Origin: an uncultured Gemmatimonadales bacterium | Lineage (GTDB): Bacteria > Gemmatimonadota > Gemmatimonadetes > Longimicrobiales > RSA9 | Reading direction: 5' to 3' | DNA length: 64,000 bases | Assembly: GCA_963798085.1 (NCBI GenBank) | Contig: CAWCRS010000007.1 | Span: forward strand, 960,001 to 1,024,000 | In this document: piece after piece, positions 43,322 to 64,000 of the stretch | How positions within the stretch are numbered: position 1 is the stretch's first letter | How the letters are laid out: each line of letters opens with the position of its first letter | The notes under the pieces: generated by a model | Databases searched by the model: none | What the model was told of the DNA's origin: nothing | Seen by the model: the letters and a program-made list of their open reading frames with translations, nothing else | Program-made: the position numbers and the translations under genes

Positions 43322-44014
43322 ATGTATCTGGCGCGGCTGCGCGAACATCTGCCGCAGGTCGAAGAGCGGATCGCGCGGGCGCTCGAGCGGTCGGGACGCG
43401 CCAGTGCGGTTACGATCGTCGGCGTGACGAAGGGCCATCCGGCGGCGGCTGTGCGCGCCGCGGCGGAAGCGGGTCTGCGTCACTGCGGTGAGAACCGGGT
43501 GGCCGAGCTCGCGGGCAAGCGCGCGGAGCTGGGTCAGCCGGTTCAATGGCATCTGATCGGGCATCTGCAGCGGAACAAGGTCCGGCAGGCACTCGGCCTG
43601 TTCGACCTGATCCATTCGGTGGATTCCGTCCGGCTGGCGGAGGAGCTTTCGGCCGAGGGCGGTCGCTCCGGGGTACCGGTGGAAGCGCTGGTGCAGGTGA
43701 ATGCGTCGGGCGAGGGCACGAAGGGCGGTCTGGACGTGGAGTTGGCCCTTGGGACTATCGCGGAAATGGCTCTGCTGCCGACACTTCACCTCAGGGGCCT
43801 CATGACGATGGCCCCGTTCACGGATGACGAAGCGGTGCTGCGCCGAACATTCCGGCGCACGCGCGAGCTTTTTGACGCGTGTGCGCGGGAGGTGGCGGGC
43901 TTCGAGGCCCGACACCTGTCCATGGGGATGTCGAATGATTTCGAGATCGCCGTGGAGGAGGGGAGCACAATGCTCCGGCTGGGTACCGTCCTGTTCGGGG
44001 AGCGAACACAATGA
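43322..44014 (+). CDS. yggS: PLP homeostasis protein YggS
   Basis: VTK, GENR, WHLIGHLQRNK, HSVDS, GLMTM, LSMGMS.D, R.GT..FG. Confidence 0.95.
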   Translation: MYLARLREHLPQVEERIARALERSGRASAVTIVGVTKGHPAAAVRAAAEAGLRHCGENRVAELAGKRAELGQPVQWHLIGHLQRNKVRQALGLFDLIHSVDSVRLAEELSAEGGRSGVPVEALVQVNASGEGTKGGLDVELALGTIAEMALLPTLHLRGLMTMAPFTDDEAVLRRTFRRTRELFDACAREVAGFEARHLSMGMSNDFEIAVEEGSTMLRLGTVLFGERTQ

Positions 44015-45717
44015 TCGAGCTGACGCCACTCGACGTTCGGAAGAAGAAGGGAGACTTCCGACGAGGGCTGAGAGGATACGAAACCGCGCTGGTCGATGAT
44101 TTTCTCGACCTGGTCGCGGATCGACTGGAAGTACTGGTGCGCGAAGCGGCGTCGATGGGTGAGCGCGTCGCCAGGCTCGAGCAGCAGGTTGCGGATTACC
44201 GGGATCGCGAGCGCGCGCTGACCGAAGCGCTGGTCACGGCGCAGCAAATGCGCGAAGACATCCGCACACAGTCGACGCGCGAAGTCGAGCTGCTGCGTCG
44301 TCAGGCCGAGCAGGAGGCCAGCCAGATCAAGGCGGAAGCGGTCCAGTCGCGCGAGCACGAGGAAGAAGCACTGCGCTCGCTGCGCGCACGACAGACGCAG
44401 GTCATCAGCAGCTACAAGGCGTTCCTCGAGCAGGAAATCTCGCACCTCAACGCGATGGCGCGGGGGCTCGACATGCACGCGGGCTCAATGCCGGCGCCGC
44501 CGGCCGCCCCGCCTGTGATGCCATCCCATACGCCGCCAGCACAATCGCCGGCGGCATCCACCGAACCGGCGAAAACCGCTCCGCCCGCACCGCCACCGCC
44601 GCCCGCACGGCCGCCTGTCATGGAGCGGCCCGCAGCGCCGGCGGCAGAAGCCAGCCCGTACGCGCGCGGTCCCGTCAGCTCGGTGGCCTCTCCGGCCTCG
44701 CCGGCCTCGCCGCCGCTACCACGACCGGGTCCCGTACCGTCGCCGCGCATGGCGGAACGCCCCGAGCCGCGAGGCGAGATTTCCACCGCGACGCGCAGCG
44801 AACCTTCGCGCACCAATGTGAGGCAGGGCGGTGCGGGGCGCGCAACAGAGCCGCCGCGCGCAGCATCCGGCCTGGCGCTGCCCATGGACGAAGTGGAAGC
44901 GCAACTGGAAGAAGCGCTGGCGCGCTGGGAGCCTGAGCTGGAGCAGGAACTGGAGCTGGGGAGCGACGACGCGGAAGACGATGCGCTGGTTCAGGAGATG
45001 GAGCTGCTGCTCTCCGATGATGACGTAGTGGGCGCGAATCGCAACGACGACGAGGAGAATGAGCCGGAAGCGAGCGCACCCGCGGACACCGACGATGACG
45101 ATGAGGTGCTCGAGTTTCTCGGCCTGATGGAGGACGACGAGCCGGCGGATGATTCCGAAGCCGACGACGCAGTCGCGTCGTCGCCTGCCATGCCTGCCGC
45201 CACGACAGCCGAGGCGCCCATGCCCGCGCCCCCGGCAGCGCCGCAGCGTACGGATGCGCAGCGTGCCGAGCTGGCGCGTGAAGCTTCGGCGGCGCTGCCC
45301 GAGACCGAATCGGCGAGCAGCGAGTTGATCGACCTCGATGACGCTTTCGGTGAGCCGCCGGTCACGCCAGCGGCACAAGCAGACGCGGAATCCGCTGTCG
45401 CTGAGGAACCCGAGCCGACGCCGACGGCCGCGCTGGAAGAGGCGTTCGAAGAAGCGCCGCCGGAGCCGGTCGCCGACGGACACACCGACGCCGGCAACGG
45501 GCACTCGAGCAACGGTCGCGACCTGATCGATCTGGATGCGCTGGGCTCGATCTCCAATTTCGATCTGCCCGGTCCCGGGTCCGGGGACACCTCGACACTG
45601 ACGCTGCACCCCATGTTCTTCGACCAGGAGTCGTCGGACTTACCGGGGATCAAGGAGTCCCGCGACAAGGCGAAGGACGAGCGACGCGACCGCTGGTCAT
45701 CGTCAGGAGGCGGGTGA
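44011..45717 (+). CDS. DivIVA-domain protein with long Pro-rich and acidic disordered C-terminus
   Basis: LTPLDV...F....RGY....VDDFLD, then coiled coil; about 400 aa of low-complexity tail. Confidence 0.85.
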   Translation: MIELTPLDVRKKKGDFRRGLRGYETALVDDFLDLVADRLEVLVREAASMGERVARLEQQVADYRDRERALTEALVTAQQMREDIRTQSTREVELLRRQAEQEASQIKAEAVQSREHEEEALRSLRARQTQVISSYKAFLEQEISHLNAMARGLDMHAGSMPAPPAAPPVMPSHTPPAQSPAASTEPAKTAPPAPPPPPARPPVMERPAAPAAEASPYARGPVSSVASPASPASPPLPRPGPVPSPRMAERPEPRGEISTATRSEPSRTNVRQGGAGRATEPPRAASGLALPMDEVEAQLEEALARWEPELEQELELGSDDAEDDALVQEMELLLSDDDVVGANRNDDEENEPEASAPADTDDDDEVLEFLGLMEDDEPADDSEADDAVASSPAMPAATTAEAPMPAPPAAPQRTDAQRAELAREASAALPETESASSELIDLDDAFGEPPVTPAAQADAESAVAEEPEPTPTAALEEAFEEAPPEPVADGHTDAGNGHSSNGRDLIDLDALGSISNFDLPGPGSGDTSTLTLHPMFFDQESSDLPGIKESRDKAKDERRDRWSSSGGG

Positions 45718-51300: not shown

Positions 51301-51759
51301 ATGGAGCGTGACCTTTCCATCGGCGAATCCGCGCACGCGCCACCCTCGCCGTGGGCGTTCTTCGCCTGCAGTGGCAAGGGTTACGCAGTGCCGCTGGAAC
51401 GCGTCGATGAGATCGTGCCGCCGCAACCGCTCACGCGCATTCCCGGTTGCGGACCGTCCGTGTGCGGGCTGATCGGCCTGCGCGGCCGGGTGATCACCGT
51501 GTTCGATCTGGGCGTGCTGACAGGCGTGTCAGCAGCCGCGGCGCACCCGGATTATCGTGTGGTGCTCATGTGGCGGGGCGAGCGCGTGCTTGGCCTTGCC
51601 GTTGACGAAATGATCACGATCGCCTCGCCGGAAGAGGCGGAAGACATGGAAGCCGCCAGGGACGGCGGCGCCGACGCGGCGAACCGTGCAGTGAAGATCG
51701 GCGGCCGCGAATTCACCATACTCGACCCGGACGGACTGTTTGCCACGTTGCTTACCTGA
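51301..51759 (+). CDS. cheW: CheW-family coupling protein
   Basis: YAVP...V.EI, TRIPG....V.GLIGLRGRVITVFDL, GLAVD. Confidence 0.88.
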   Translation: MERDLSIGESAHAPPSPWAFFACSGKGYAVPLERVDEIVPPQPLTRIPGCGPSVCGLIGLRGRVITVFDLGVLTGVSAAAAHPDYRVVLMWRGERVLGLAVDEMITIASPEEAEDMEAARDGGADAANRAVKIGGREFTILDPDGLFATLLT

Positions 51760-51782
51760 CGGCCGGGCGTTGTGAGGAGGTC

Positions 51783-52145
51783 ATGGCACGAACCGTTCTG
51801 ATCTGCGACGACGCGCTCTTCATGCGGACGATGCTGGCTGAGATCATGGAGCAGGCGGGATTCGAAGTCGTGGCACAGGCTGCCACCGGCGCGGAAGCGG
51901 TGAAGCTGTATCGCGACCTGAAACCGGACCTGGTCACGATGGATATCATCATGCCCGACATGGGTGGCATTGAAGCCGTCAAGGCGATCGTCAACGAGCA
52001 CCCGGAAGCAAACATCGTGATGTGCAGTGCAATGGGGCAGCAGGCGCTGGTCATCGAGGCGATCCAGGCCGGGGCGAGGGATTTCGTGGTCAAGCCATTC
52101 CAGCCGGCGCGCGTCCTGGAGGCGGTTCACCGCGTTCTGGGCTGA
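51783..52145 (+). CDS. cheY: Single-domain response regulator CheY (Bacillus/Thermotoga/DifD-like)
   Basis: DDALFMR, PDLVTMDI.MP, CSAMGQ, DFVVKPF. Confidence 0.93.
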   Translation: MARTVLICDDALFMRTMLAEIMEQAGFEVVAQAATGAEAVKLYRDLKPDLVTMDIIMPDMGGIEAVKAIVNEHPEANIVMCSAMGQQALVIEAIQAGARDFVVKPFQPARVLEAVHRVLG

Positions 52146-52160
52146 TTGCGCGGAGGCGCT

Positions 52161-54053
52161 GTGCAATACGAGCGCTTTCTCGACCTTTACATCACGGAGA
52201 GCCGCGAGCATCTCGAGCTGCTGACGCGGAGCCTGCTGCATCTGGAGCAGGGCAAGGCGGACGCGGTCGACGATGCCTTTCGCGCGGCGCACACCATCAA
52301 GGGGTTAGCCGCCGCCATGGGTCATGCCGCGGCGGCCGCCACCGCGCACGAGCTGGAAGACCGGCTGTCCGCTGTGCGCGAGAAGAAGGAACCGGTGCAC
52401 GGCGAGCTGGTCGATGCGCTGCTCGCGGGACTGGACCGGCTCGAGCACGCCATTGAGAAGGCGGTCAGCGAACAGGGCGCGGCAGGCCTTGCGCTGGAAC
52501 GGATCGAAGGCGACGACGCCGCGTCCGGTGCGGCACACGGTGCAACCATGCCGGCGGGTGCCGCGGCTGCGACGGGGAACCCGCCTGGCGGGATTCCCGG
52601 ACCGGTTGTCACACCGGCGCCGCCGGGTACGCGCACGGTAGCTGTCGTTCACCTCGTGCCTGACGCGGCCCTGCCCGAAGCCAGGGTGCAGCTGATCCGG
52701 CGTGCGCTGCAGCGCGCGGGGGCATTGCTCGACTCCTCACCGGACATCGGCGAGCGCTACGGCGGCGAGCTGCGACTCTACCTGAACGCGGTAGCGGACG
52801 CGGCAACCGTGGAAGCGGCGATCCGTGCCTGCGGCGAAGTGGCGGACGTGCGCTTCGAGAAGCCACCACGGAGTGGTTCGAACGGGATTGGCGAAGCATC
52901 CTCAGCAACCGCAGCGAAGTTACCGGACGGAGGCGGCAGACCGGCTGCGACGCAAAGCCGCACGGTGCGCGTCGACCGCGCACGACTGGACGAGCTGGCC
53001 GAGGGTATCGCCGAGCTTTCCGTGCTGCAGGCGAGAGCGGCGCAGACGTCCATTGGCCTGGGCAGCGATCGCGCGTCCACCGTGCTCTCCGCGTTGCAGC
53101 GCACCGTGCTCGACATGCGCATGGTGCCGGTGTCCACTGCATTCGAGCGTTTCGGCAGGCTGGTGCGGGACACGGCGCGCGCGACCGGCAAGGATGTGGA
53201 CTTCACGCTGCAGGGCGGCGAGATCGAGCTGGATCAGGCCGTGCTCGACGCGCTCGTGGATCCACTGGTGCACGTGGTACGCAACGCCGTGGACCACGGC
53301 ATCGAGCCGGCGGCGGTACGTGAGCGCGCGGGCAAGGCGGGGCGGGGCAGCGTGCGCATCGAAGCGGAGCGCGAGCGCAACAGCGTGCGCATCCGCGTGA
53401 GTGATGACGGCCGCGGTGTTTCGCGCGATGTCGTCGCCGCACGCGGTCGCGCCATGGGTCTGCTGCCGGAGGATGCGAGTGAGCTTTCGGACGACGAAAT
53501 CCTGCGTCTGCTGTTCCACCCGGGCTTCTCCACCGCGGAGACGGTGACCGAGCTGTCCGGTCGCGGTGTGGGCCTCAATGTGGTGGCCGGCCGCATCCGC
53601 AGCCTGGGCGGCGCCATCGAATTGAGCACGGCTGCGGGCACGGGTACCACCTTCACGCTGCGCGTTCCCGTGACACTCGCGCTGACGCACGCGCTGCGCA
53701 TCCGGCTGGGCGAGGAAGAGTACGCGCTGCCCATCACGCACGTGAGCGAGGTGATCCCGCTGGAGGGTGATGCGCGCAGTGAGCGCGGCGGTGTGCGCGT
53801 GCGCGGCGATGTGGTGCCGCTCGTCGAGCTGGGGCGTGTTCTGGGCGCGCGCGGCGGCGAGCCCAGCGCGGCCATTGTTGCCGAGCTGGGCGGCAGACGC
53901 GTCGCGCTGGCGGTGGATCGCGTGCTGGGCCACGAACAGATACTGGTGAAGACATTCAATGCGCCGGTGGACACGCTGCCCGTCTTTTCGGGCGCGACCC
54001 TCCTGCCCGATGGGCGGCCGGCTTTGCTGATCGACCCGCTCAGCGTAGTCTGA
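52161..54053 (+). CDS. cheA: Chemotaxis histidine kinase CheA
   Basis: HPt FRAAHTIKG; VRVD..RLD; RMVP; HVVRNAVDHGIE; DDGRG; GFSTA...SGRGVG; C-terminal CheW-like domain. Confidence 0.95.
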   Translation: MQYERFLDLYITESREHLELLTRSLLHLEQGKADAVDDAFRAAHTIKGLAAAMGHAAAAATAHELEDRLSAVREKKEPVHGELVDALLAGLDRLEHAIEKAVSEQGAAGLALERIEGDDAASGAAHGATMPAGAAAATGNPPGGIPGPVVTPAPPGTRTVAVVHLVPDAALPEARVQLIRRALQRAGALLDSSPDIGERYGGELRLYLNAVADAATVEAAIRACGEVADVRFEKPPRSGSNGIGEASSATAAKLPDGGGRPAATQSRTVRVDRARLDELAEGIAELSVLQARAAQTSIGLGSDRASTVLSALQRTVLDMRMVPVSTAFERFGRLVRDTARATGKDVDFTLQGGEIELDQAVLDALVDPLVHVVRNAVDHGIEPAAVRERAGKAGRGSVRIEAERERNSVRIRVSDDGRGVSRDVVAARGRAMGLLPEDASELSDDEILRLLFHPGFSTAETVTELSGRGVGLNVVAGRIRSLGGAIELSTAAGTGTTFTLRVPVTLALTHALRIRLGEEEYALPITHVSEVIPLEGDARSERGGVRVRGDVVPLVELGRVLGARGGEPSAAIVAELGGRRVALAVDRVLGHEQILVKTFNAPVDTLPVFSGATLLPDGRPALLIDPLSVV

Positions 54054-54056
54054 GTC

Positions 54057-54674
54057 ATGGATCCGAGATCGCTCGACGAGCTGCACCTCGACGCACTGCG
54101 TGAGACCGCGAACATTGGCGCGGGTCACGCCGCCACCGCGCTGTCCCGGCTCACCGGGCGGCGCGTCATGGTCAGCGTGCCCGAGGTGAGCATCCTGCCG
54201 CTGGAACAGGTGGGCGGCATGCTGGGCGATCCGGGCGAAGTCGTGTCCGCGGTGATCGTGACTGTGGAAGGCGACGCGACGGGTCGCACACTGCAGATCT
54301 TTCAGGGCGCCACCGCGGCCAAGCTGGTTTCGATGCTGCTCAACATGCGCGAGCCGGTGTTCCCGGACGGCTTCGGTGTACTCGAGCGGTCCGCCGTGAA
54401 AGAGATCGGCAACGTCATCGTGGGCGCGTACCTCAACGCGCTCGCCGACTTCACCGGCATGACGCTGTCAATGTCGGTGCCCGCTTTCGCGATCGACATG
54501 GCGGCGGCGATCCTGATGACGAGCTACCTGAACTTCGGCAGCGAAGATGATTTCGTGCTGTCGATCGGGACTCGCCTGGTAGTGGATGGCAGTGAAGAGC
54601 TGCGCGCGCATTTCCTGCTGATTCCGGACGACGATTCACTCAACCGGATCCTGCGATCGTTGCGCGTGGTGTGA
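54057..54674 (+). CDS. cheC: CheC-family phosphatase
   Basis: Two E..N motifs: DALRETANIGAGHAATALS and SAVKEIGNV. Confidence 0.92.
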   Translation: MDPRSLDELHLDALRETANIGAGHAATALSRLTGRRVMVSVPEVSILPLEQVGGMLGDPGEVVSAVIVTVEGDATGRTLQIFQGATAAKLVSMLLNMREPVFPDGFGVLERSAVKEIGNVIVGAYLNALADFTGMTLSMSVPAFAIDMAAAILMTSYLNFGSEDDFVLSIGTRLVVDGSEELRAHFLLIPDDDSLNRILRSLRVV

Positions 54675-57385
54675 CGGTGGAGGCGGCGCTGGCCGATTCG
54701 AACCTCTTCCTTCCCTGGACAGATCGACCGGGTCCGCAGGCGGGCGCGCCGCGATCGGATCGCGATGTCACGATTCTGCGCGGGCTGGCGCGTCGCATTC
54801 CCGCGAATGATGCGGGCGCGCACAACAACCTGGGCGTGGTCTTCTTCCAGAAAGGCATGCACGCGGATGCCGCGGAGCAGTTCGAGCGCGCGCTCGAGCT
54901 GGATCCGCGCATGCAGGTCGCAGAGCGCAACCTGCAGATCGTGTATTTCGGCACCGACTACTACGACCGCACACTCGAACAGCTGAACCAGCGACTGGCC
55001 GCGAACGCAGACGACGCGGCCGCGCGCAGCCAGCTGGCCCGCACATACCTGTTCGGCGGCGACGCGCGCGCGGCGCTCCGCGAGTGGCAGCGACTGGTGA
55101 CGGAGCGACCGGGCGACCCGGAGGCCGAAGCGTGGATCGCGCGCGCGGAGGTACGCCGCGGCGATCTCGACGGCGCCGTCCAGGTGCTCGCGCGCGCCGC
55201 GGAGAAACACCCGGACAATGCGCGTCTCGCTCTGCAAATGGGAGAGATCCTGTACCTGCGCGGCATGGCGGCGGAAGCATCGCGCTGGCTGGAGCGCTGC
55301 CTGGCGCTGGACGAGAATCATGCGGAAGCGCATCACCTCATCGCATTCGTCTACGGCGAGCTGGGCCATGCGGCACGCGCGCAGGAGCACGCGGCGCGCG
55401 CCGCCGCGCTGAATCCGAGCTTCGCGAAGGCGGACCGCAGTCTCTCACTGGATCGCTACAACGAGGCGAGGTACAGCGAGCTGACCGGGGATCGCGGCAA
55501 GCCCGTCGTTACCGAAGGCGGTGGCCTGGTCCATTACAACATGGGACTCGCCCTGCGCCAGAAGGCACTGTACGAGGAAGCGCTGAAGGAATTCAAGCTG
55601 GCGGATGAGCGAGGCGAGGATCGCTACCTCGTGATGCAGGCGCAGGCCGAGATGATGCTGCTGCTCGGCAACGGTGGACAGGCGGCGTCGCTTTACACGG
55701 AATTGATCGAGGAGGAGCCCGCCAGCCCGAAGCTCTGGAACGAGCTGGGTGTGGCGCAGCATCAGCTGGGCCGGCTGGCGGATGCCGAGGCATCGTATGC
55801 GCGCGCCATCGGACTCGATCCGAAATACACGCTGGCGTGGAACAACCTGGGTGTGGTGCGACACCATCGCACGCAGGAAGGCAGTGAAGAAGCGCTCGAG
55901 TCTGCGCTCGCGGCGGGACGCTCACTGGCCGAGATCTGGCGCAACCTCGGCTGGCTGCACCACCTGCGAAAGGACTGGGTCGGCGCGGAGCACGCCTATC
56001 GGCAGGCCCTGGACGTGGACACGCGACTGGCCACCGCATGGACGGGTCTCGGCATGCTGTTCCTTGAGCGCGGCCGAGCCGAGCCGGCGAGCACCGCGCT
56101 GGCCCGCGCGGTCGAGTGTGATCCCAACCTGCCGGAAGCGCATTATCACTACGCTTTCGCTCTGTCGGCGAGCGGAGATTATCCTGCAGCATTGCGTGAG
56201 ACGAGTCGCGCACTCGAACTGAACCCGTACATCACACTGCCGCGCTTCCGACTGCTGATCGACCTGCAGTTCGAGGATGCCGCCGTGACCGCGCCGGAGC
56301 TGGATGCGCCTGAACGGCTGATGGCGGGCGCGACCGTCGAGCATTTCGACTTCGAGGCGGAGGACATCAGCCTGGCGCTCGAGGCGGTCGAGCCGCGCGT
56401 GCCGGAAGCGTCGAAGGCCGAGCCCGAGCTGTCACTGCCCTCGAAGCCGGCATCGATCGAATGGCTGGCGGCGGCGAGAGCCTCGCTGCACAGCGGCCAC
56501 TATGCGGAGGCCATGGCGGATGTGCAGCGCGCGGTGGCGTTGGGCGCGAACCGCATCGAGGCGCAGCTGCTCCAGGGCGAAATCCACCTGCTGAGCGGCG
56601 CGGCGGGCGAGGCGGTGGACCGGTTCGACGAAGTGCTGCACGAGCTGCAATGGTCGGTCCCGCAGGCATGGCTGGACGAGAAGGACATTCGCGTGCGCGC
56701 CCTGGCAGGCATGGCCAGGTCGCTGCTCGATCTGGAACGCGCGCCCGAGGCGGTGGATTTCGCGCGCAAGGCACGGGAGCTGGCGCCATCGGCCGAAACT
56801 GCATCATTGGAGGCCGATGCGCTGCTTTCGGTGGGCGTGCCCCTGGAAGCAGCCGGCGTGCTGGAACGGGCACTGGCAGAGAATCCGGAAAACGTGGAGC
56901 TGCGCACGCGACTGGGCGCGGCCTGGCTGCAGGCGGGTGATGTAGCGAGAGCGGAGCCCATGCTGCGCGGCGCATTGGAGCGGGAGAGCGAGCTGCCGGC
57001 GGCGCGCGCCACGCTGGGCAGGCTGCTGGCGATCGAGGGGCGCAGCACCGACGCGGAACAGGAGTACCGCGCGGCGCTGCACGTGATACCGAGCTTCACG
57101 GACGCGGCCATTGGCCTGGCCGATCTCCTGGCCGAGCAAGGACGGCTCGATGAGGCGATCAATGTGCTGGCGACATTCCTCGAGGCGGACCCCTACAGCT
57201 TCTTCGGTCTGGTGCGCCTGGGTGACGTGCTCTGGCGCGCCGGCCGCGAGATCGAAGCGGGGTTCGCCTACCGGCGCATCCTGCACTTCGACCCCGGCCA
57301 CGAGGAGGCACGCGAAGGACTGGAGCGGCTGGAACCGCACGAGGAAGACGTCGATGCATCCTGGACTGTCGTGTTAGCGGAGTAA
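54671..57385 (+). CDS. Large cytoplasmic multi-TPR protein
   Basis: Many TPR-like repeats (AHNNLGVVF, WNELGV, AWNNLGVV, AWTGLG); no signal peptide; GTGA overlap with cheC. Confidence 0.9.
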   Translation: MTVEAALADSNLFLPWTDRPGPQAGAPRSDRDVTILRGLARRIPANDAGAHNNLGVVFFQKGMHADAAEQFERALELDPRMQVAERNLQIVYFGTDYYDRTLEQLNQRLAANADDAAARSQLARTYLFGGDARAALREWQRLVTERPGDPEAEAWIARAEVRRGDLDGAVQVLARAAEKHPDNARLALQMGEILYLRGMAAEASRWLERCLALDENHAEAHHLIAFVYGELGHAARAQEHAARAAALNPSFAKADRSLSLDRYNEARYSELTGDRGKPVVTEGGGLVHYNMGLALRQKALYEEALKEFKLADERGEDRYLVMQAQAEMMLLLGNGGQAASLYTELIEEEPASPKLWNELGVAQHQLGRLADAEASYARAIGLDPKYTLAWNNLGVVRHHRTQEGSEEALESALAAGRSLAEIWRNLGWLHHLRKDWVGAEHAYRQALDVDTRLATAWTGLGMLFLERGRAEPASTALARAVECDPNLPEAHYHYAFALSASGDYPAALRETSRALELNPYITLPRFRLLIDLQFEDAAVTAPELDAPERLMAGATVEHFDFEAEDISLALEAVEPRVPEASKAEPELSLPSKPASIEWLAAARASLHSGHYAEAMADVQRAVALGANRIEAQLLQGEIHLLSGAAGEAVDRFDEVLHELQWSVPQAWLDEKDIRVRALAGMARSLLDLERAPEAVDFARKARELAPSAETASLEADALLSVGVPLEAAGVLERALAENPENVELRTRLGAAWLQAGDVARAEPMLRGALERESELPAARATLGRLLAIEGRSTDAEQEYRAALHVIPSFTDAAIGLADLLAEQGRLDEAINVLATFLEADPYSFFGLVRLGDVLWRAGREIEAGFAYRRILHFDPGHEEAREGLERLEPHEEDVDASWTVVLAE

Positions 57386-57388
57386 TTC

Positions 57389-58519
57389 ATGGCGATCGAG
57401 GGACCGCTCCGCGAACTGGGCATTCAGGATGTGCTGCAGCTGCTCGAGCTGGCGCAGAAGACCGGTGTGCTCACGGTGCGCAGCGAGCGGCTCAATGATG
57501 AAGCCATCGTGCACTTCAGCCGCGGCGAGATCGTGTTCGCGGTGCGCCGCCGCTCGACTCGCCGGCTGGGCCAGCTGCTGATCCGCGCGGGTAAACTGAC
57601 GCGCGGTGATCTCGACCGCGCCCTCGAGAAGCAGCGCTCCGATCCCACCAAGCGCCTTGCCGAGATCTTCGTGGACATGGGCCTGGTCAGCGAAGAAGAG
57701 CTGGCGAGGCAGCTGCGCTTCCAGATGGAAGAGACCGTCTACGAGCTGATGTCGTGGGAAGAGGGCTACTTCAAGTTCGAGGAGCGTGCAGAAATCGCCG
57801 GCCAGCGACTGCTGGCGAGAGTGCGTGTGGACTCGCTCCTCATGGAGGGTGCCCGCCGGCTGGACGAATGGTCGCGGCTCGAGTCGAAGGTACCGACGCC
57901 AGAAGCGATTCCCTCGCTGGCCCCCGCATCGGAGCGCGACGTCACGCCGCTCGACCTGTCGCCGGAAGAATGGGAAGTGCTGGCGGAGATCGATGGCGAA
58001 CGCGATGTGCGTCAGATTGCGGCCGACCTGGGACGCAGTGCGTTCGATGTGGGCAAGACGCTGTACGGTCTGGTCGCGGCCGGCATTGCGCAGGTCCAGA
58101 TCCGGCACACGCGCATGCCGGAGGAACAACTCCGCCGCTCCATCATTGAAGTGCACGATCTGCTGTCGGCGGGCCAGATCGAGCGCGCACGCAAACTCGC
58201 GGCTGACCTGGAATCGGCGCATCCCGATCGCGCGGATCTCGCCGTCCTGAGCGGACGCGTACTGGCCGCGCAGGGCCGCCTGCGCGCGGCGGCGGAAGCG
58301 CTCACTCGCGCCGTGACACTGGACCCGCTGTCCTCCGAAGCTCACTATGAGCTTGGTTTCTGTGCCGCGAAAACCGGCGACTTCGAGCGCGCTGTGAGGG
58401 CGTGGGAGACATTCGTGCGTTTGTCCCCCGCCGGCGAAGAGCGACAGAACGCCTCCAACGGGCTCGCGGCGGCACGCACGTTATCGCAGATCCTCGACAG
58501 GACGTCGAAACGGACATGA
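57389..58519 (+). CDS. DUF4388 (PatA-N-like) protein with MshEN motif, wHTH-like segment and TPRs
   Basis: G.L......DVLQLL....KTGVL; RLGQLLIRAGKL....LDRALEKQ; W.EG.F.F; LLMEGARRLDEW; C-terminal TPRs. Confidence 0.85.
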   Translation: MAIEGPLRELGIQDVLQLLELAQKTGVLTVRSERLNDEAIVHFSRGEIVFAVRRRSTRRLGQLLIRAGKLTRGDLDRALEKQRSDPTKRLAEIFVDMGLVSEEELARQLRFQMEETVYELMSWEEGYFKFEERAEIAGQRLLARVRVDSLLMEGARRLDEWSRLESKVPTPEAIPSLAPASERDVTPLDLSPEEWEVLAEIDGERDVRQIAADLGRSAFDVGKTLYGLVAAGIAQVQIRHTRMPEEQLRRSIIEVHDLLSAGQIERARKLAADLESAHPDRADLAVLSGRVLAAQGRLRAAAEALTRAVTLDPLSSEAHYELGFCAAKTGDFERAVRAWETFVRLSPAGEERQNASNGLAAARTLSQILDRTSKRT

Positions 58520-59794
58520 AGACACCGGCCCCGGCAGACCTGCATCGCTGGAGCGAAGAGCTGGCGAGGAATCCGACGTCGCTCGCGTTCCTGCCGCTCG
58601 CGCGCGCCTATCGACGTCTGGGGCGCCGCGATCTCGCGCTGCAGCTCTGCCTGCGCGGGCTCGAACATCACCCCGCGCACGTCGAAGCACACGCACTGCT
58701 GGCGCTGCTGTACTTCGAGTCCGGCGAGCGCGCCCGGGCAGCGGACGAATGGGCCACCGTGCTGCGCCTCAAGCCCGGCAACTTCGAAGCGCTGCGCGGC
58801 ATGGGCTTCCGCTATCTCGAGCAGGGCGACATGGCGAGGGCGAGGCAGCACCTCGAGCGCGCGGGCTTGATCCGCCCCGATGATGCGACCGTGCAGGAAG
58901 CCTTGCGCCTGATCCGCCACCGCGAATCCAGCACCATTTCCGGCACGCGGCCCGCCGCCTCGCCCGGCGGCCCGACGAGTGCGCCGGCAGCGCCACGAGC
59001 GGCGTCGCCTGCACCCGGACCGACTGCGCCGGCACCCGCAGCGGCCGCGCAGAGCAGTGCGCCCCCCGCCGCTGCGGCGCCAGCGTCGAGACCACCCTCG
59101 CCAGCGGCGAGCCGGCCAGCTGGCGCGCCCCCGGCCCCGCCGCGCGCCGCGGCGCCGGCCGCCACCACCTCCTCGAGGCCGACACAGCCGGCGACCAGGC
59201 CAGAGTCCCGCAGCGCCAGCCCGCCCAGGCCGGGCGTGATTGCGCCCAAGCCGGCGGCAGGCATCCCGGCTGCGGCCACGGCCGGCTGTACCGTCGTCAC
59301 CGGCGCCTGCGCCGACGCCAGCGCAGGCCGCGGCTGGCCCACCGACCCCGAAGCGAGCGCCGCAGGCCGCTCCGCGACCGGTCGAGCCGAAGCGGATGGA
59401 GCCGGCGCGCGAGCTGGTGGCGCCACCGGATCCGGAGCGCGTGTTCGAGTCTCTGTCAGGGGCGACGCCGCTGCTCGGTGTTCTGCTGCTCGACCGCCGC
59501 GGCCTCGTGCTCGCAGGCGGACTGCGCAGTGCCGCCGCAGGTGCGGCCGAAGACCTCGGCGCGATCCTGGGCGGCGCGATTGACGAAGCGGTGCGCACGG
59601 TACTGCACCTCGAGCTGGGCGAGTGGAAGGGGCTCATGCTGGATTGCGCAGAGGCTGTGCTGCATGTGGCGCCGGTGGGTGACGACGCGCTCGTCGTCAT
59701 CGCGGCGCGCAAGGACTCGCCGGCCGGCTGGACCATGCGCGCGGCCGAGCACGCGGCTGCGCTGGCCGAGCGCTTCCTGGGGGTCTACTCATGA
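58516..59794 (+). CDS. TPR - Pro/Ala linker - Roadblock/LC7 fusion; probable +1 frameshift near 59260-59285
   Basis: N-terminal TPRs and PA-rich linker in one frame; the linker continues in the next frame into a roadblock domain (GVLLLDRRGLVLA...LELGEW). Confidence 0.75.
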
Positions 59795-60156
59795 GCGACG
59801 TCTTCCGCGATGCGGTGCTGAACCTGAGTCACGTGCCGGGCGTCAGCGGTGCGCTCATTGTGGACGCGCAGGCGGGCGTGGCCGTGGTCGAAGAATTGAA
59901 AACGAACGTGTCGGGCACTGCGCTGGCCGCGCTGGCGACCGCGCTGTATGCGCGCACGGCGCAAGCCAGCGAAGCGGCGGAATACGGCAGCCTCGGTGGC
60001 CTGCAGCTGGATGCGGAGCGTGGCCGTGTGCTGATCGCGAGCGCCGGTGAGCTGCTGATTGTGGCGCTGACACAGGATGATGCGCAGCTCGGCCGTGTGC
60101 GCCTCGAGGCGCAGCGGGCGGCGCGCGCCGTGCGCGCGGAGCTGGAGAGCGGCTGA
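59791..60156 (+). CDS. Roadblock/LC7-domain protein (MglB/MglC-like)
   Basis: L..VPGVSGALIVD..G.., LAALA, G.L, L.....G, LG...L pattern. Confidence 0.85.
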   Translation: MSDVFRDAVLNLSHVPGVSGALIVDAQAGVAVVEELKTNVSGTALAALATALYARTAQASEAAEYGSLGGLQLDAERGRVLIASAGELLIVALTQDDAQLGRVRLEAQRAARAVRAELESG

Positions 60157-60650
60157 TGCGCAGCTCCGAGCTGCCCGTGCTGGTGTCCGCGCTGGGAAAG
60201 CCCATCGAGCGCTTCGTACGCGAATCGCGCGTGCGCATTGCACTGCTGATCACGGGCAGCGGTCAGGTGCTGGCGCAACACGGCTTCACCAGCAGCTACG
60301 AGATCATGAACGTCGCCTCGCTGGCTGCCGCCACGCACGCATCGTCACGCGCACTCGCCCAGCTGCTGCGCGCGGGGAACTGGCTGCACCTGCACCATCA
60401 GGGCGCGCGCCAGCAGCTTTTCCTCGCCACGCTCGATACTCCCATCGAGAAGCTGATCCTCGTCGTCATCTTCGACGCCGAGTCGTCGCTCGGGCTGGTG
60501 CAGTTCTTCTTCGGCCAGCTCGCGGAACACGTGCGTCGCATGCCCGAGCTGGCGGCCGCTACGCGCTCCGCCGATCAGCGCAGCTTCGAGCGCGACCTGG
60601 AAGCCGGACTCAGGCGCGCGTTTTCTCCGGAAACCGGCAGTGAGGCCTGA
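60156..60650 (+). CDS. mglB: MglB-like GTPase-activating Roadblock protein
   Basis: ALLI..SGQ..AQ.G, ASLAA......ALA.LL, LHHQG, IL.VIFD..SSLGLV; immediately upstream of mglA. Confidence 0.82.
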   Translation: MRSSELPVLVSALGKPIERFVRESRVRIALLITGSGQVLAQHGFTSSYEIMNVASLAAATHASSRALAQLLRAGNWLHLHHQGARQQLFLATLDTPIEKLILVVIFDAESSLGLVQFFFGQLAEHVRRMPELAAATRSADQRSFERDLEAGLRRAFSPETGSEA

Positions 60651-60651
60651 C

Positions 60652-61263
60652 GTGTCGCTGGTCAATTACTCCACGCGCGAGATCACCTGCAAGATCGTGT
60701 ACTACGGGGCGGGCCGCTCCGGCAAGACCAGCAACCTGCAATACGTGCACGCGTTCGTGCCGGAAGACCGCCGGGGCGCCATGGTGTCGCTGGCCACGGA
60801 GACGGAGCGCACGCTCTTCTTCGATTTCCTGCCACTCGATCTGGGCCTGATTTCGGGATTCCGCACACGCATTCAGCTGTACACGGTGCCGGGTCAGGTC
60901 TACTACGGCGCGACGCGGCGGCTGGTGCTGCGCGGCGCAGATGGCGTGGTGTTCGTCGTCGACTCACAGCGCGAGCGCTTCGAGGAAAACTTCGAGAGCT
61001 TCCGCGCACTGCACGAGCATCTGCTCGAGGAAGGCCTCGATCCCCGCGATTTCCCGCTGGTGCTGCAATACAACAAGCGCGATCTGCCGGGTGTCATGGG
61101 ACTCGATGAGCTGGAGGATGTCTTCAATTTTCGCGAGTTGCCATCGTTTCCCGCGGTGGCCGTGGAAGGCGAAGGTGTGTTCCCCACACTGAAGAGTGTG
61201 AGCACCCTCGTGCTCCAGGGTCTGTCGCGGCGGTTCCGCGCTCAGGGCAGTCCGTCACCCTGA
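60652..61263 (+). CDS. mglA: MglA-family small Ras-like GTPase
   Basis: NY..REI.CKIVYYG.G.SGKT, SLATETERTLFFDFLP, LYTVPGQVYY, DGVVFV.DS, NKRD. Confidence 0.95.
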   Translation: MSLVNYSTREITCKIVYYGAGRSGKTSNLQYVHAFVPEDRRGAMVSLATETERTLFFDFLPLDLGLISGFRTRIQLYTVPGQVYYGATRRLVLRGADGVVFVVDSQRERFEENFESFRALHEHLLEEGLDPRDFPLVLQYNKRDLPGVMGLDELEDVFNFRELPSFPAVAVEGEGVFPTLKSVSTLVLQGLSRRFRAQGSPSP

Positions 61264-61275
61264 CGGAAGCGGGCC

Positions 61276-62976
61276 ATGACGGGTCGCGGGCTCGATCACC
61301 GTTTTTCCTTCGAGAACTTCGTCGTGGGTGGCGCAAACCGGCTGGCGGCCGCGGCGGCCCGCCGTGTGGCGGAAGCACCGGGCAAGGCCTATAACCCGCT
61401 GTTTGTGTACGGCGCATCCGGGCTGGGCAAGACGCACCTGCTGCTGGCAATTGGTAATCAGGCGTTACGCCGGCAGCCTGCGCTGCGCGTGGTGTTCGAG
61501 ACGGTGGAGCGGGCCGTGCATCAGATGGCGCCCGCGGCAGACGAAACCGGTGAAATCCGCACCGCACAGCTGCTGCTGCTGGATGACGTGCAGTACCTGA
61601 CCGGCGACCGGCGCGCACAGGAGACGCTGCTGATCTGGTGGGACGAGCTGGCGTCGCGCGGCGCGCAGATCGTACTGGCGGGCGACCGGCCACCGACCGA
61701 AATCGATCGCCTCGATCACCACCTGCTCTCGCGCTTCGCCGCCGGGCTGGTCGCGGACGTGGGGCCGCCCGATTACGAGACGCGCATTGCGCTGGTGCAG
61801 CGCAAGGTGGAAGAGCGCGGACACGCGCTGCAGCCCGGTGTGGCCGACGCCATCGCGCGGGTTGCCTTCTCCAACGTGCGCGAGCTGCAGGGTGGACTCA
61901 ACCGCGTGATCGCGGCGCAGGAACTGGACGGCAATCCGGTGCGGCCGGAGGACATTCCCGGCCTGCTGGGTGTGGCCGCGGCGAGAGCGGACAGCGAAGA
62001 GTTCGATTCGTTCTTCGAGGAAGTCGCGGGCGCGGTCGCGGAAATCGCGACGCGCGTGACGCCCGAACAGCGTCTGGTGGATGCGATCCTGCGTTATGAG
62101 GGCGAAGGCTATCGCACGTTCCGCCTGGAAGTCGCGCTGCGCACACCGCCGGGCGAGCGCGAAGTCGTGGAGCTGGTCGAGCGCTACACCGCCGATGTCG
62201 AACGATTGCAGGCAATCGCCGCGGAGATCCGCAGCCTCGATGGCGATGCGCCCGAGCTGGCAAGGGCCGACCTGCTGCGCAATCCGGATCGCGTGCTGGA
62301 AGCCGAGACACTGGTGGCGCAGGTGCACGAGCGGCTGCGCCCGCTGCCCGAGCCGACGCCCGGGCCCGGTCTCGACAGCCTGGGACTGGACGAGGAGAGT
62401 CCCGCGCTCGATGCCGTGCGTGCCGTGGCGCGCAGGCCGGGCGCGCGACCCGGCCCGCTGTACGTGCGCGGAGAGCCCGGCTCGGGCAAGAGCGCGCTGC
62501 TGCACGCACTGGCGCGTGAAGTCCGGCGCGAGCTGCCCATGCTGCCTATTGCCGTGCTCGGCGCGCAGCAGATGGCAGGGGAAATCGAGGCGGCGATCAA
62601 CGCCCGGCATGCGGATGCATGGCGGGCGCGCTACCGTCGGGCCCGCCTGCTGGTGATCGACGACTTCGATCGCATGCATGCTGACAGCGCTGTTCGCGAC
62701 GAGCTGTTTTGCCTGTTCGACGGTGTGCGCCGCAGCGGCGGGCAGATCGTGCTCGCGGGCGTGCGCGACCCTGCGGCGAATGGCGGGGCCGACCGCCTGG
62801 GCGGCCTGGTGGCCGAGTCGGATGTCGCGGACATGAAGCCGGCCAGCACGGGGCTGGACGGTGGCCGCGCGGGCGGCGAGCCGGCTGACCTGCGCGACGT
62901 GTGGTTCCTGAACCGCGAGAAGTCGCTGCCCCGCTGGCCGTACATCGAGGACTGGCTCGTGACGGAGCTGGACTAA
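61276..62976 (+). CDS. Tandem DnaA/Hda-type AAA+ protein lacking DnaA domains I, II and IV
   Basis: Module 1: FSFENFVVG.ANRLA, YNPLFVYGASGLGKTHLL, LLLDDVQ, DRPP, SRF, NVRELQG. Module 2: PLYVRGEPGSGKS.LL.A, LLVIDD, ELF..FD, GGQIV. Confidence 0.85.
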   Translation: MTGRGLDHRFSFENFVVGGANRLAAAAARRVAEAPGKAYNPLFVYGASGLGKTHLLLAIGNQALRRQPALRVVFETVERAVHQMAPAADETGEIRTAQLLLLDDVQYLTGDRRAQETLLIWWDELASRGAQIVLAGDRPPTEIDRLDHHLLSRFAAGLVADVGPPDYETRIALVQRKVEERGHALQPGVADAIARVAFSNVRELQGGLNRVIAAQELDGNPVRPEDIPGLLGVAAARADSEEFDSFFEEVAGAVAEIATRVTPEQRLVDAILRYEGEGYRTFRLEVALRTPPGEREVVELVERYTADVERLQAIAAEIRSLDGDAPELARADLLRNPDRVLEAETLVAQVHERLRPLPEPTPGPGLDSLGLDEESPALDAVRAVARRPGARPGPLYVRGEPGSGKSALLHALAREVRRELPMLPIAVLGAQQMAGEIEAAINARHADAWRARYRRARLLVIDDFDRMHADSAVRDELFCLFDGVRRSGGQIVLAGVRDPAANGGADRLGGLVAESDVADMKPASTGLDGGRAGGEPADLRDVWFLNREKSLPRWPYIEDWLVTELD

Positions 62977-62977
62977 G

Positions 62978-64000
62978 ATGGCTATCAAGGGCGCGCTGCG
63001 CGAAGCCAGCCTCGCCGAGGTCTGCCAGCTGCTGGCGCTCGGGCTGAAGACGGGATGCCTTTCCGTCGCAGACCGCTCGCGCTTCGGCCAGATCTACTTC
63101 GATCGCGGCAAGATCACGTTCGCACGCATCGTCAACCGCCGCGACCGCCTGGGCGATCTGCTGATCGCTGATGGTGTGCTCGAGCCCGACCAGCTGGAAG
63201 AGCTGCTCAGCATACAATCGCGACATCCGGAACGACGCCTCGGCGAGCTGATGCTGGAGCGCGACCTGATCCAGGAGCCGGATCTGCAACGCTACATCCG
63301 CATGCAGATCGAGGAAGCCGTGTGCCATCTGTTCACCTGGACGCGCGGACACTTCTACTTCGAGGCCGGCGAAAAGCCCGATCCGCGTGAGACGCCCGTG
63401 CCCATGAACGCGGAGAGCCTGCTGCTCGAAGCCGCACGGCGGGTCAATGAGTGGAGCCTCATCCAGAAACGCATTCCCTCGCTCGAGCTGGTGTTCGAAG
63501 TCGATCGCGATCGGCTGGCCGCATCCACCGCGCAGCTGACGGAAGAACAGCGCGCCGTCGCCGAGCTGCTCGATGGCCGGCGCTCCGTGCATGACCTGAT
63601 GCGCCAGACAGGCCTGGGCGAGTTCGACGCGGGTAAGGCGCTGTTCGGGCTGGTGCAGGCAGGCTTCGCACGGCGTACGGGTCGCCAGACGGAAGGTCCG
63701 GAACGGCCCCGCGAATCGGAGATCCAGGAGCGGCACAACCTGGGCGTCGCGTTCTTCCGCTCGGGCATGCTGGACGATGCGGCGAGGGAATTCCGCCGCG
63801 TGCTCGAGATCGCTTCCGATGATCTGCGTTCACGGTTTCACCTCGCCATGATCTCAATGCGACAGGGCGAGTTCCGCGACGCGGCCCGCGAGCTGGTGCA
63901 GCTGGCGAGGCGGCACGGGCCGCGCTACCCCGTGATGGTGAACCTGGCCACTTCGTTCCGCCACATGGACCGGCTCGATGATGCGCTGTTAGCCCTGAGC
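62978..64000 (+). CDS. Second DUF4388-MshEN-wHTH-TPR protein (3'-partial; absent from the ORF track)
   Basis: My translation is open to the window end: MAIKGALREASLAEVCQLLALGLKTGCL...RLGDLLIADGVL....LEELLSIQ...LLLEAARRVNEW...HNLGVAFFRSG. Confidence 0.88.
   Translation, partial: MAIKGALREASLAEVCQLLALGLKTGCLSVADRSRFGQIYFDRGKITFARIVNRRDRLGDLLIADGVLEPDQLEELLSIQSRHPERRLGELMLERDLIQEPDLQRYIRMQIEEAVCHLFTWTRGHFYFEAGEKPDPRETPVPMNAESLLLEAARRVNEWSLIQKRIPSLELVFEVDRDRLAASTAQLTEEQRAVAELLDGRRSVHDLMRQTGLGEFDAGKALFGLVQAGFARRTGRQTEGPERPRESEIQERHNLGVAFFRSGMLDDAAREFRRVLEIASDDLRSRFHLAMISMRQGEFRDAARELVQLARRHGPRYPVMVNLATSFRHMDRLDDALLALS

Follow-up and report, generated by a model that had tools for sequence, protein, structure and literature searches.

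A conserved gene string of the Gemmatimonadetes joins Dif-like chemosensory genes, a second MglA/Roadblock switch, PATAN proteins and a DnaA-derived protein that is not a replication initiator

The closest described relatives of the system considered here come from Myxococcus xanthus, where the Ras-like switch protein MglA drives pili via an effector with tetratricopeptide repeats (TPR; PMC7519303), where MglB and RomY form a multi-part GTPase-activating protein (GAP; PMC9481161), and where the Dif chemosensory genes stand by their locus tags in the order difC-difD-difE (PMC3945109), with DifG a CheC homologue (PMC4671073). A further thread comes from the PATAN (DUF4388) domains, which bind PilB1 and PilC in Synechocystis (10.1101/2021.06.11.447907) and whose proteins co-occur with SgmX (PMC11580455). 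PATAN genes also lie near some group 1 mglA genes, and a table row of 2014, GAU_1409, gives the neighbourhood as PATAN, MglA, an unnamed gene and PATAN (PMC4316618). In Myxococcus the components that connect chemosensory pathways to MglA are scattered across the chromosome and came to light one at a time; here candidate linkers stand in one string of genes. Gemmatimonadota are common in soil and sediment, and their signalling is almost unstudied. The string lies at the end of a 64,000-nucleotide stretch (the window) of contig C7 of genome G000, an uncultured Gemmatimonadales bacterium (GCA_963798085.1), and the genomes compared with it are given as G-numbers.

Twelve genes on the forward strand, at 51304..64000, follow one another with intergenic distances of -11 to +23 nucleotides by the coordinates of their open reading frames (ORFs). 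A first reading of the same DNA from its letters (the sequence-only reading) had described twelve co-directional genes at most about 25 nucleotides apart, and the description holds, as do the family names it gave, by Pfam and NCBIfam matches. Its extent of twelve is right for the window and too short for the string, which runs on past the window end: the last gene reaches position 64600 in window numbering, and overlapping cheR, cheD and cheB come after it, so that the unit comprises 15 genes, with Che genes flanking an eight-gene insert. Upstream, 77 nucleotides separate rluD from cheW. The gene order, whose conservation in relatives had been put forward as a check, is kept across the class Gemmatimonadetes, and all twelve genes are present in 40 of the 66 genomes with fetched loci; these loci were selected via matches to cluster genes, many are cut by contig ends and kin among them are not independent, and 40 of 66 is therefore not an unbiased rate. 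Three of the 40 have the genes on two loci, G026 and G028 being true splits between mglA and the DnaA-like gene, and G071 a case of the upstream cheW severed by a contig end. The string is a real, conserved joining of known modules plus one new protein family. That no characterised system has such a composition, as had been supposed, agrees with the literature searches, which found no paper about either the joint Che and Mgl string or its DnaA-like protein, subscription papers being mostly outside their reach. The preferred reading, judged about as likely as not, is that a Dif-like Che pathway, a second MglA/Roadblock switch and a PATAN-TPR hub here control type IVa pili.

The string opens with cheW (51304..51759; Pfam CheW E-value 5e-24), a cheY for a single receiver domain of the F1/DifD type (51783..52145; Pfam, NCBIfam) and a cheA (52146..54053; Pfam, NCBIfam) with Hpt, weak P2, dimerisation, ATPase and CheW domains and no receiver fusion, followed by the gene of a CheC phosphatase (54057..54674; Pfam CheC E-value 4e-22), for which the top NCBIfam model is the CheC of Thermotogales, under its cut-off. 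The top NCBIfam models for the Che proteins are in general those of Thermotogales and haloarchaea, all under their cut-offs. Taken together, CheW, CheY, receiver-less CheA, CheC, CheD, CheR and CheB have a Dif-like, F1 make-up. The order cheW-cheY-cheA-cheC, a putative 44H-like receptor and a probable non-flagellar use are shared with Myxococcus Dif and the Dif-like clusters of Geobacter, the latter also sharing CheD and CheR (PMC2577667), whereas Myxococcus Frz differs in the CheA-receiver fusion of FrzE, absent here. What sets the string apart from Dif and the Dif-like clusters is that its receptor gene is elsewhere and that an eight-gene Mgl/PATAN/DnaA-like block stands between cheC and cheR. 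The window CheY, whose identity among relatives is 58-90% and mostly at least 69%, carries F13, M14, M17 and I21, four of the five primary DifD specificity residues listed in PMC4671073. G000 has one full receptor and one fragment, neither of them inside the string; the full receptor (G000:C5:169763-171466) looks 44H-like and lies far from both cheA genes. Against the Thermotoga receptor 2ch7, of class 44H, its C-terminal arm aligns free of gaps and its N-terminal arm with a 7-residue gap, at about the length of a 44H receptor. Exactly one receptor is also found in seven relatives of the same family.

It is from this likeness that the main rival of the pilus reading, a Dif-like matrix output, takes its strength. 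The same hub would then regulate exopolysaccharide or biofilm as Myxococcus Dif does, with pili as the upstream sensor and c-di-GMP (cyclic diguanosine monophosphate) setting matrix production. Counting for it are a gene order equal to difC-difD-difE(-difG) by locus tags and homologies, the DifD residues of the CheY, and a lone receptor that aligns with 2ch7 without gaps in its C-terminal arm, DifA being of class 44H. The shared CheY residues may, however, be general F1 features, exopolysaccharide genes were not seen in the string, and in the accessible portion of the source Dif is without MglA, Roadblock and PATAN partners, families that are tied to pilus placement; an exopolysaccharide output is judged unlikely. 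Pili as the output remain evenly poised, and several points weigh against them. Dif, the closest Che relative, controls exopolysaccharide downstream of pili; the string itself holds no pilus genes; and the type IVa pilus motor genes pilB, pilT and pilC all look interrupted by frame breaks in the G000 assembly. In a survey of 80 genomes searched for FlgI, CheA, receptor and PilM, a PilM was present in 77, several of them without the cluster, and a gene so nearly universal is unable to show co-variation or to discriminate between outputs.

The insert begins with a gene for a 904-amino-acid TPR protein (54671..57385; Pfam), which gives generic TPR matches only, with family models and in structure search; it may serve as an effector of MglA or as a scaffold, its likeness to SgmX going no further than analogy. 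After PATAN1 (57389..58519) come three Roadblock genes, namely a TPR-linker-Roadblock gene (58516..59794; ORFs, Pfam), which falls into two frames in the assembly with a break near 59278, a stand-alone Roadblock/LC7 (59791..60156; Pfam) and an mglB-like Roadblock (60156..60650) that is a candidate GAP, and then mglA (60640..61263). The likeness to the MglA/MglB system of Myxococcus xanthus (with RomY, MglC and SgmX) lies in MglA (E-value 1e-68 to solved MglA), in MglB (1e-11 to solved MglB), in the several Roadblocks, the large TPR protein and the chemosensory input; the difference is that the window mglA is a second paralogue with its partners in one string. By its P-loop, switch residues, G4 motif and adjoining MglB/Roadblock genes, the window MglA has the make-up of a group 1 MglA; it is intact, keeps the switch arginine and glutamine, and carries an arginine in its P-loop. 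The canonical mglB-mglA pair is found elsewhere (G000:C7:1263705-1264791), after dnaX-ybaB-recR and before a pgsA-like gene, in a setting that is the same in the six relatives fetched, and the two MglA paralogues of G000 are 56% identical. Among the orthologues, 58 of 62 keep the switch arginine and glutamine and have a P-loop arginine in common. The four degenerate ones, in which the switch residues are lost, belong to one genus (G060, G059, G111, G121); its cluster also has a shortened TPR gene and a PATAN1 that lacks MshEN, and cheR, cheD and cheB are missing. At an E-value of 1e-30, 89 of 111 Gemmatimonadota genomes gave a match to MglA, as against none of 11 from outside the class. At the locus of five genomes of three genera (G030, G087, G108, G110, G118), the three Roadblock genes (TPR/Roadblock, Roadblock and mglB) have disappeared jointly, and mglA, PATAN1 and the DnaA-like ATPase stay. 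This joint loss fits a multi-part GAP akin to MglB/RomY, and by that analogy MglB and the two extra Roadblocks would form one.

The two PATAN proteins share a DUF4388/PATAN domain, an MshEN insert and TPRs (Pfam, NCBIfam); the insert lies at 57563-57724 in PATAN1 and at 63146-63307 in PATAN2, the 540-amino-acid product of the last window gene (62978..64000, ending 600 nucleotides past the window). For the NCBIfam model NF053729, a c-di-GMP motif (MshEN tandem of 24 residues) with a cut-off of 38 bits, PATAN1 scores 51.9 and PATAN2 42.2, which bears out the MshEN motif that the earlier description gave to both. These matches suggest that c-di-GMP binds the inserts, and G000 has 12 GGDEF matches. 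The cyanobacterial PatA-type PATAN-REC proteins PixE and PixG likewise place DUF4388/PATAN in a chemosensory cluster; the window proteins differ from them in having MshEN inserts and TPRs and no fused receiver. Closer still is the GAU_1409 neighbourhood of Gemmatimonas aurantiaca (supplement file 3 of PMC4316618), which has the same PATAN-MglA-PATAN core; Che genes do not figure in that row, the gene between mglA and the second PATAN is unnamed there, and function was not tested.

That all of this forms a single module, as the sequence-only reading proposed, is right in so far as the genes make up a conserved, packed unit; the unit is at the same time modular, with the Che genes, the Roadblock trio and the whole Mgl block each lost in some lineages and the string split in two genomes. 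PATAN2 is found in 65 of the 66 genomes with loci, the sole miss being a cut contig. It is retained where the Che genes are lost (G014, G126; they are mostly lost in G024 and G090) and where the Mgl block is lost (G091, G093, whose entire cluster consists of cheWYAC, a remnant of the DnaA-like gene, PATAN2, cheR and cheB). In a set of 29 genomes chosen mostly for an absent cluster mglA, a full PATAN2 orthologue was found in one. Such natural deletion variants show which parts go together, and they bear on a second rival, in which the ancestral locus holds two separate systems, a Che pathway and an Mgl polarity module, co-regulated without contact. The losses of one part alone speak for this, as do the G026 and G028 breaks between mglA and the DnaA-like gene and the position of the string directly after a widespread run, yggS-divIVA-ileS-lspA-rluD. 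The Mgl block, however, has Che genes at either end, with stop and start codons that overlap, and PATAN2 and the two motifs of the remnant are kept in both kinds of reduced cluster, as a shared output predicts; two independent systems are rated a little less likely than the exopolysaccharide output. An output that is shared, non-replicative and non-flagellar is, on our estimate, quite probable.

A third rival, that the Che genes are an ordinary flagellar chemotaxis pathway, starts from the fact that F1-type Che components normally steer flagella or archaella and that G000 has flagellar genes. In the 80-genome survey, FlgI was found in 21 genomes, a CheA match in 64 and a receptor in 64. A CheA of the cluster type beside cheC is present in 59, of which 58 have PilM and 58 a receptor, and 41 of these 59 are without FlgI (flagellar P-ring gene flgI), among them assemblies of 3 to 10 contigs at 95-100% completeness. 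No receptor is found in G014, G024, G061, G090 and G126, the genomes whose cluster CheA has gone or is truncated. The flagellar cluster of G000 encodes a second CheA and CheY of its own, and a second CheA lies within 70 kilobases of flgI in 7 of the 21 flagellated relatives. On the other side, 6 of the 21 flagellated genomes have only the cluster CheA at an E-value of 1e-25. The Che block is independent of flagellar genes, and the flagellar rival is improbable. The G000 flagellar cluster (G000:C3:731018-776981) includes a FliM-FliN fusion, a CheA with internal Hpt, a CheY and a CheZ-like gene, and several of its genes appear split in two frames. In G061 and G114 the CheA is without its CheW-like domain, and cheW, cheR, cheD and cheB are lost; since G061 is also receptor-less, CheA, CheY and CheC may there run without an array.

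The most unusual member of the string is the tandem DnaA-derived protein (61276..62976; Pfam, NCBIfam, predicted structure). It comprises a first AAA+ domain (about 61291-61950), an acidic helix motif (61993-62046), a helical bundle, here called the middle domain (62044-62355), a second AAA+ domain (about 62362-62841) and a tryptophan tail (62893-62973). In the monomer model the bundle has a predicted local distance difference test (pLDDT) value of 94, and the acidic helix and tail are of low confidence. With DnaA and Hda it shares the domain III fold and the ATPase motifs; it differs from them in lacking domains I and IV (Pfam matches only AAA+ families), in its tandem AAA+ domains, bundle and predicted TPR-docking tail, and in ATPase domains that are dispensable in some lineages. 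The DnaA model TIGR00362 covers model positions 103-329 of 437 with a score under cut-off, and the Hda model TIGR03420 gives 129.9 bits against a cut-off of 194.8, which together with two AAA+ domains sets the protein apart from Hda. A true dnaA, with all four domains, stands before dnaN on another G000 contig. The first AAA+ domain superposes on domain III of B. subtilis DnaA with a root-mean-square deviation of 2.2 Å and keeps its Walker A lysine and first Walker B aspartate in 60 of 60 sequences and its arginine finger and sensor II arginine in 54 of 60 each; in the second, the Walker A lysine is kept in 47 of 54. Both cluster separately from true DnaA (support 97, 99 and 89) in a tree of 62 rows made by a quick method and midpoint-rooted. 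A fold search with the middle domain gave a best Z of 6.6, the common level for helical bundles, and led to no family assignment, with DnaA domain IV not among the 50 rows listed. These features identify the DnaA-derived protein as something other than a replication initiator. Its full-length relatives are in records titled Gemmatimonadota, Gemmatimonadales or Longimicrobiales, as are all of the 22 loci, among 80 examined, that matched the middle-domain profile; the remaining 58 include two Gemmatimonadota loci with no match and are otherwise for the most part normal dnaA loci from other phyla. A Longimicrobiales-named relative is 78% identical across the middle domain.

The protein has also been cut down by nature. 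The second AAA+ domain is absent in six genomes, and in six others (G058, G069, G074, G091, G093, G128), of three genera in one family, both AAA+ domains are gone and the gene is a remnant ORF of 60-73 amino acids with the acidic helix and tryptophan tail only. The remnant abuts PATAN2 in five of these six and lies 105 nucleotides upstream in the sixth, and the MshEN insert is lost from PATAN2 in five of the six (two genera) and kept in the other 59 PATAN2 listed. When the G091 remnant was modelled with its own PATAN2, the complex score was 0.78, with 0.01 for the best of three controls; among reference pairs, 116 of 157 solved ones and 2 of 215 mismatched ones attained the mark applied, figures that are approximate here, the alignments being self-built. 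Complex runs agree in at least 89% of contacts, with a partner pLDDT of at least 76. The tail sits in the TPR groove of PATAN2 in the predicted complex, the acidic helix lying outside the named interface, and the DnaA-like tail is accordingly predicted to bind that groove. Four considerations weaken this prediction: it was obtained for the G091 pair and not for that of the window; solved structures include many TPR-peptide complexes, and likeness to them may account for part of the pass; interface conservation, 0.59 against 0.55 in the rest of the TPR region, is matched by 420 of 2000 random sets; and leucines replace two groove asparagines in the window PATAN2. The acidic helix resembles CheZ and FliM peptides; its candidacy as a CheY-docking peptide is weakened by the persistence of the motif in genomes without cheY.

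The sequence-only reading had linked this ATPase to the replication or cell-cycle state, and such a link is unlikely: that it ties replication to pole identity, say by forming polymers together with DnaA or by inactivating it like Hda, could be argued from the catalytic residues of the first AAA+ domain (kept in 54-60 of 60 sequences), its superposition on DnaA domain III and the divIVA upstream, and is made very doubtful by the separate full dnaA, the absence of a domain IV match, the separation from true DnaA in the quick tree (97 and 99), the loss of both AAA+ domains in six genomes, where two motifs stay, one of them predicted to bind PATAN2, the loss of the second in six more, and the pairing of ATPase and helical unit in archaeal-type proteins, one of them named Thermoplasmata.

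Run against 1.84 billion representative sequences, the middle-domain profile matched 508. The best 150 of the 508 include large proteins with tandem repeats of the helical unit, which is single in Gemmatimonadetes and present in about eight repeats in probably archaeal (Thermoplasmata-type) proteins; in 17 of the large proteins the best repeats reach 30-46 bits, where 104 shuffled or reversed controls give 5.1. Five of the repeat proteins scanned have a C-terminal DnaA-type AAA+ domain and no domain IV match; others pair the repeats with DUF835, at the start in two, or with a KaiC-like domain, in one. Proteins of this kind (P0036, P0041, P0059, P0094, P0159 and P0188, the last at L191:5577-9350) are of 1100-1400 amino acids with 5-8 detected repeats before the C-terminal DnaA-type AAA+ domain, and they often carry zinc ribbons. 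Archaea initiate replication with Orc1/Cdc6. One relative is named as a Thermoplasmata archaeon, and that the helical unit accompanies a DnaA ATPase in what is probably an archaeon speaks for a function other than origin firing. Around this relative, on two contigs of one sequence read by ORF starts, genes of the Che, Mgl or PATAN kind were not seen, and the profile had no match in five genomes of other phyla, a scan without positive control. Two candidates were dropped: P0066, in which the middle domain seemed to be fused to DUF4388, has a frameshift-ridden sequence, and the PATAN-likeness of the archaeal-type N-terminal domain (E-value 0.06) is no better than that of a CheY control (0.04).

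In the preferred reading, that of a Dif-like Che pathway and Mgl switch acting on pili, the orphan 44H-like receptor would drive CheA and CheY, and CheC, CheD, CheR and CheB would tune that pathway. MglB and the two extra Roadblocks would act as the multi-part GAP, c-di-GMP would bind the MshEN inserts, and CheY, MglA-GTP and c-di-GMP would all act on one PATAN2 complex. The output complex would be formed by the DnaA-derived protein docking via its tail in the PATAN2 TPR groove; its AAA+ domains would be an accessory nucleotide switch or oligomeriser, and the PATAN domains would contact the pilus motor in the way that PixE engages PilB1 and PilC in cyanobacteria. A bolder form of this reading, which we think less likely than not, is that a DnaA AAA+ module was recruited from replication into signalling, paired with an undescribed helical unit of about 95 residues and docked on a PATAN-MshEN-TPR protein, forming with it in trans an ATPase gated by c-di-GMP, through which chemosensory input and Ras-like polarity signalling would meet at the pilus motor; the gating is suggested because the MshEN insert is also lost in five of the six genomes without the ATPase. 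Such a reuse of a DnaA module at the pilus motor, if true, would give a hard-wired circuit for polarity such as is not known in Myxococcus. The string also offers a direct way of testing the route from CheY to a Ras-like switch and the pilus motor, as well as the role of PATAN beyond cyanobacteria, and it points to a non-replicative family of DnaA-type ATPases, annotated "DnaA" in databases, in bacteria and probably archaea.

The two frames of the TPR/Roadblock gene are likely an assembly error. It is a single ORF in all 14 of the relatives in which both halves were matched (20 loci examined), and one short-read contig, of depth 2.4 and otherwise differing at one letter, is without one base at 59278, a loss that gives the shift joining both frames; an extra base in the assembly is therefore probable, with a single contig as thin support. 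A small alignment check of 34 genes gave two true splits, this gene and a dnaJ-like gene, and three further multi-frame matches that proved to be artefacts or repeats; a codon-based count of frame breaks was discarded, known breaks being missed. The G000 pilB has an MshEN-like N-terminus.

A sequence scan gave one promoter-like site against 1.1 by chance and eight terminator-like sites against 6.1, both near chance, and an Rfam scan of the window had zero matches. Most relatives have, after cheB, a second cheW-domain gene, another TPR gene and a peptidase-like gene, of which G000 has only the last. The DivIVA of the upstream run (window 44011-45717, 568 amino acids) carries a long acidic tail rich in proline and alanine, and the matching stretch is much shorter in the two relatives that show the gene.

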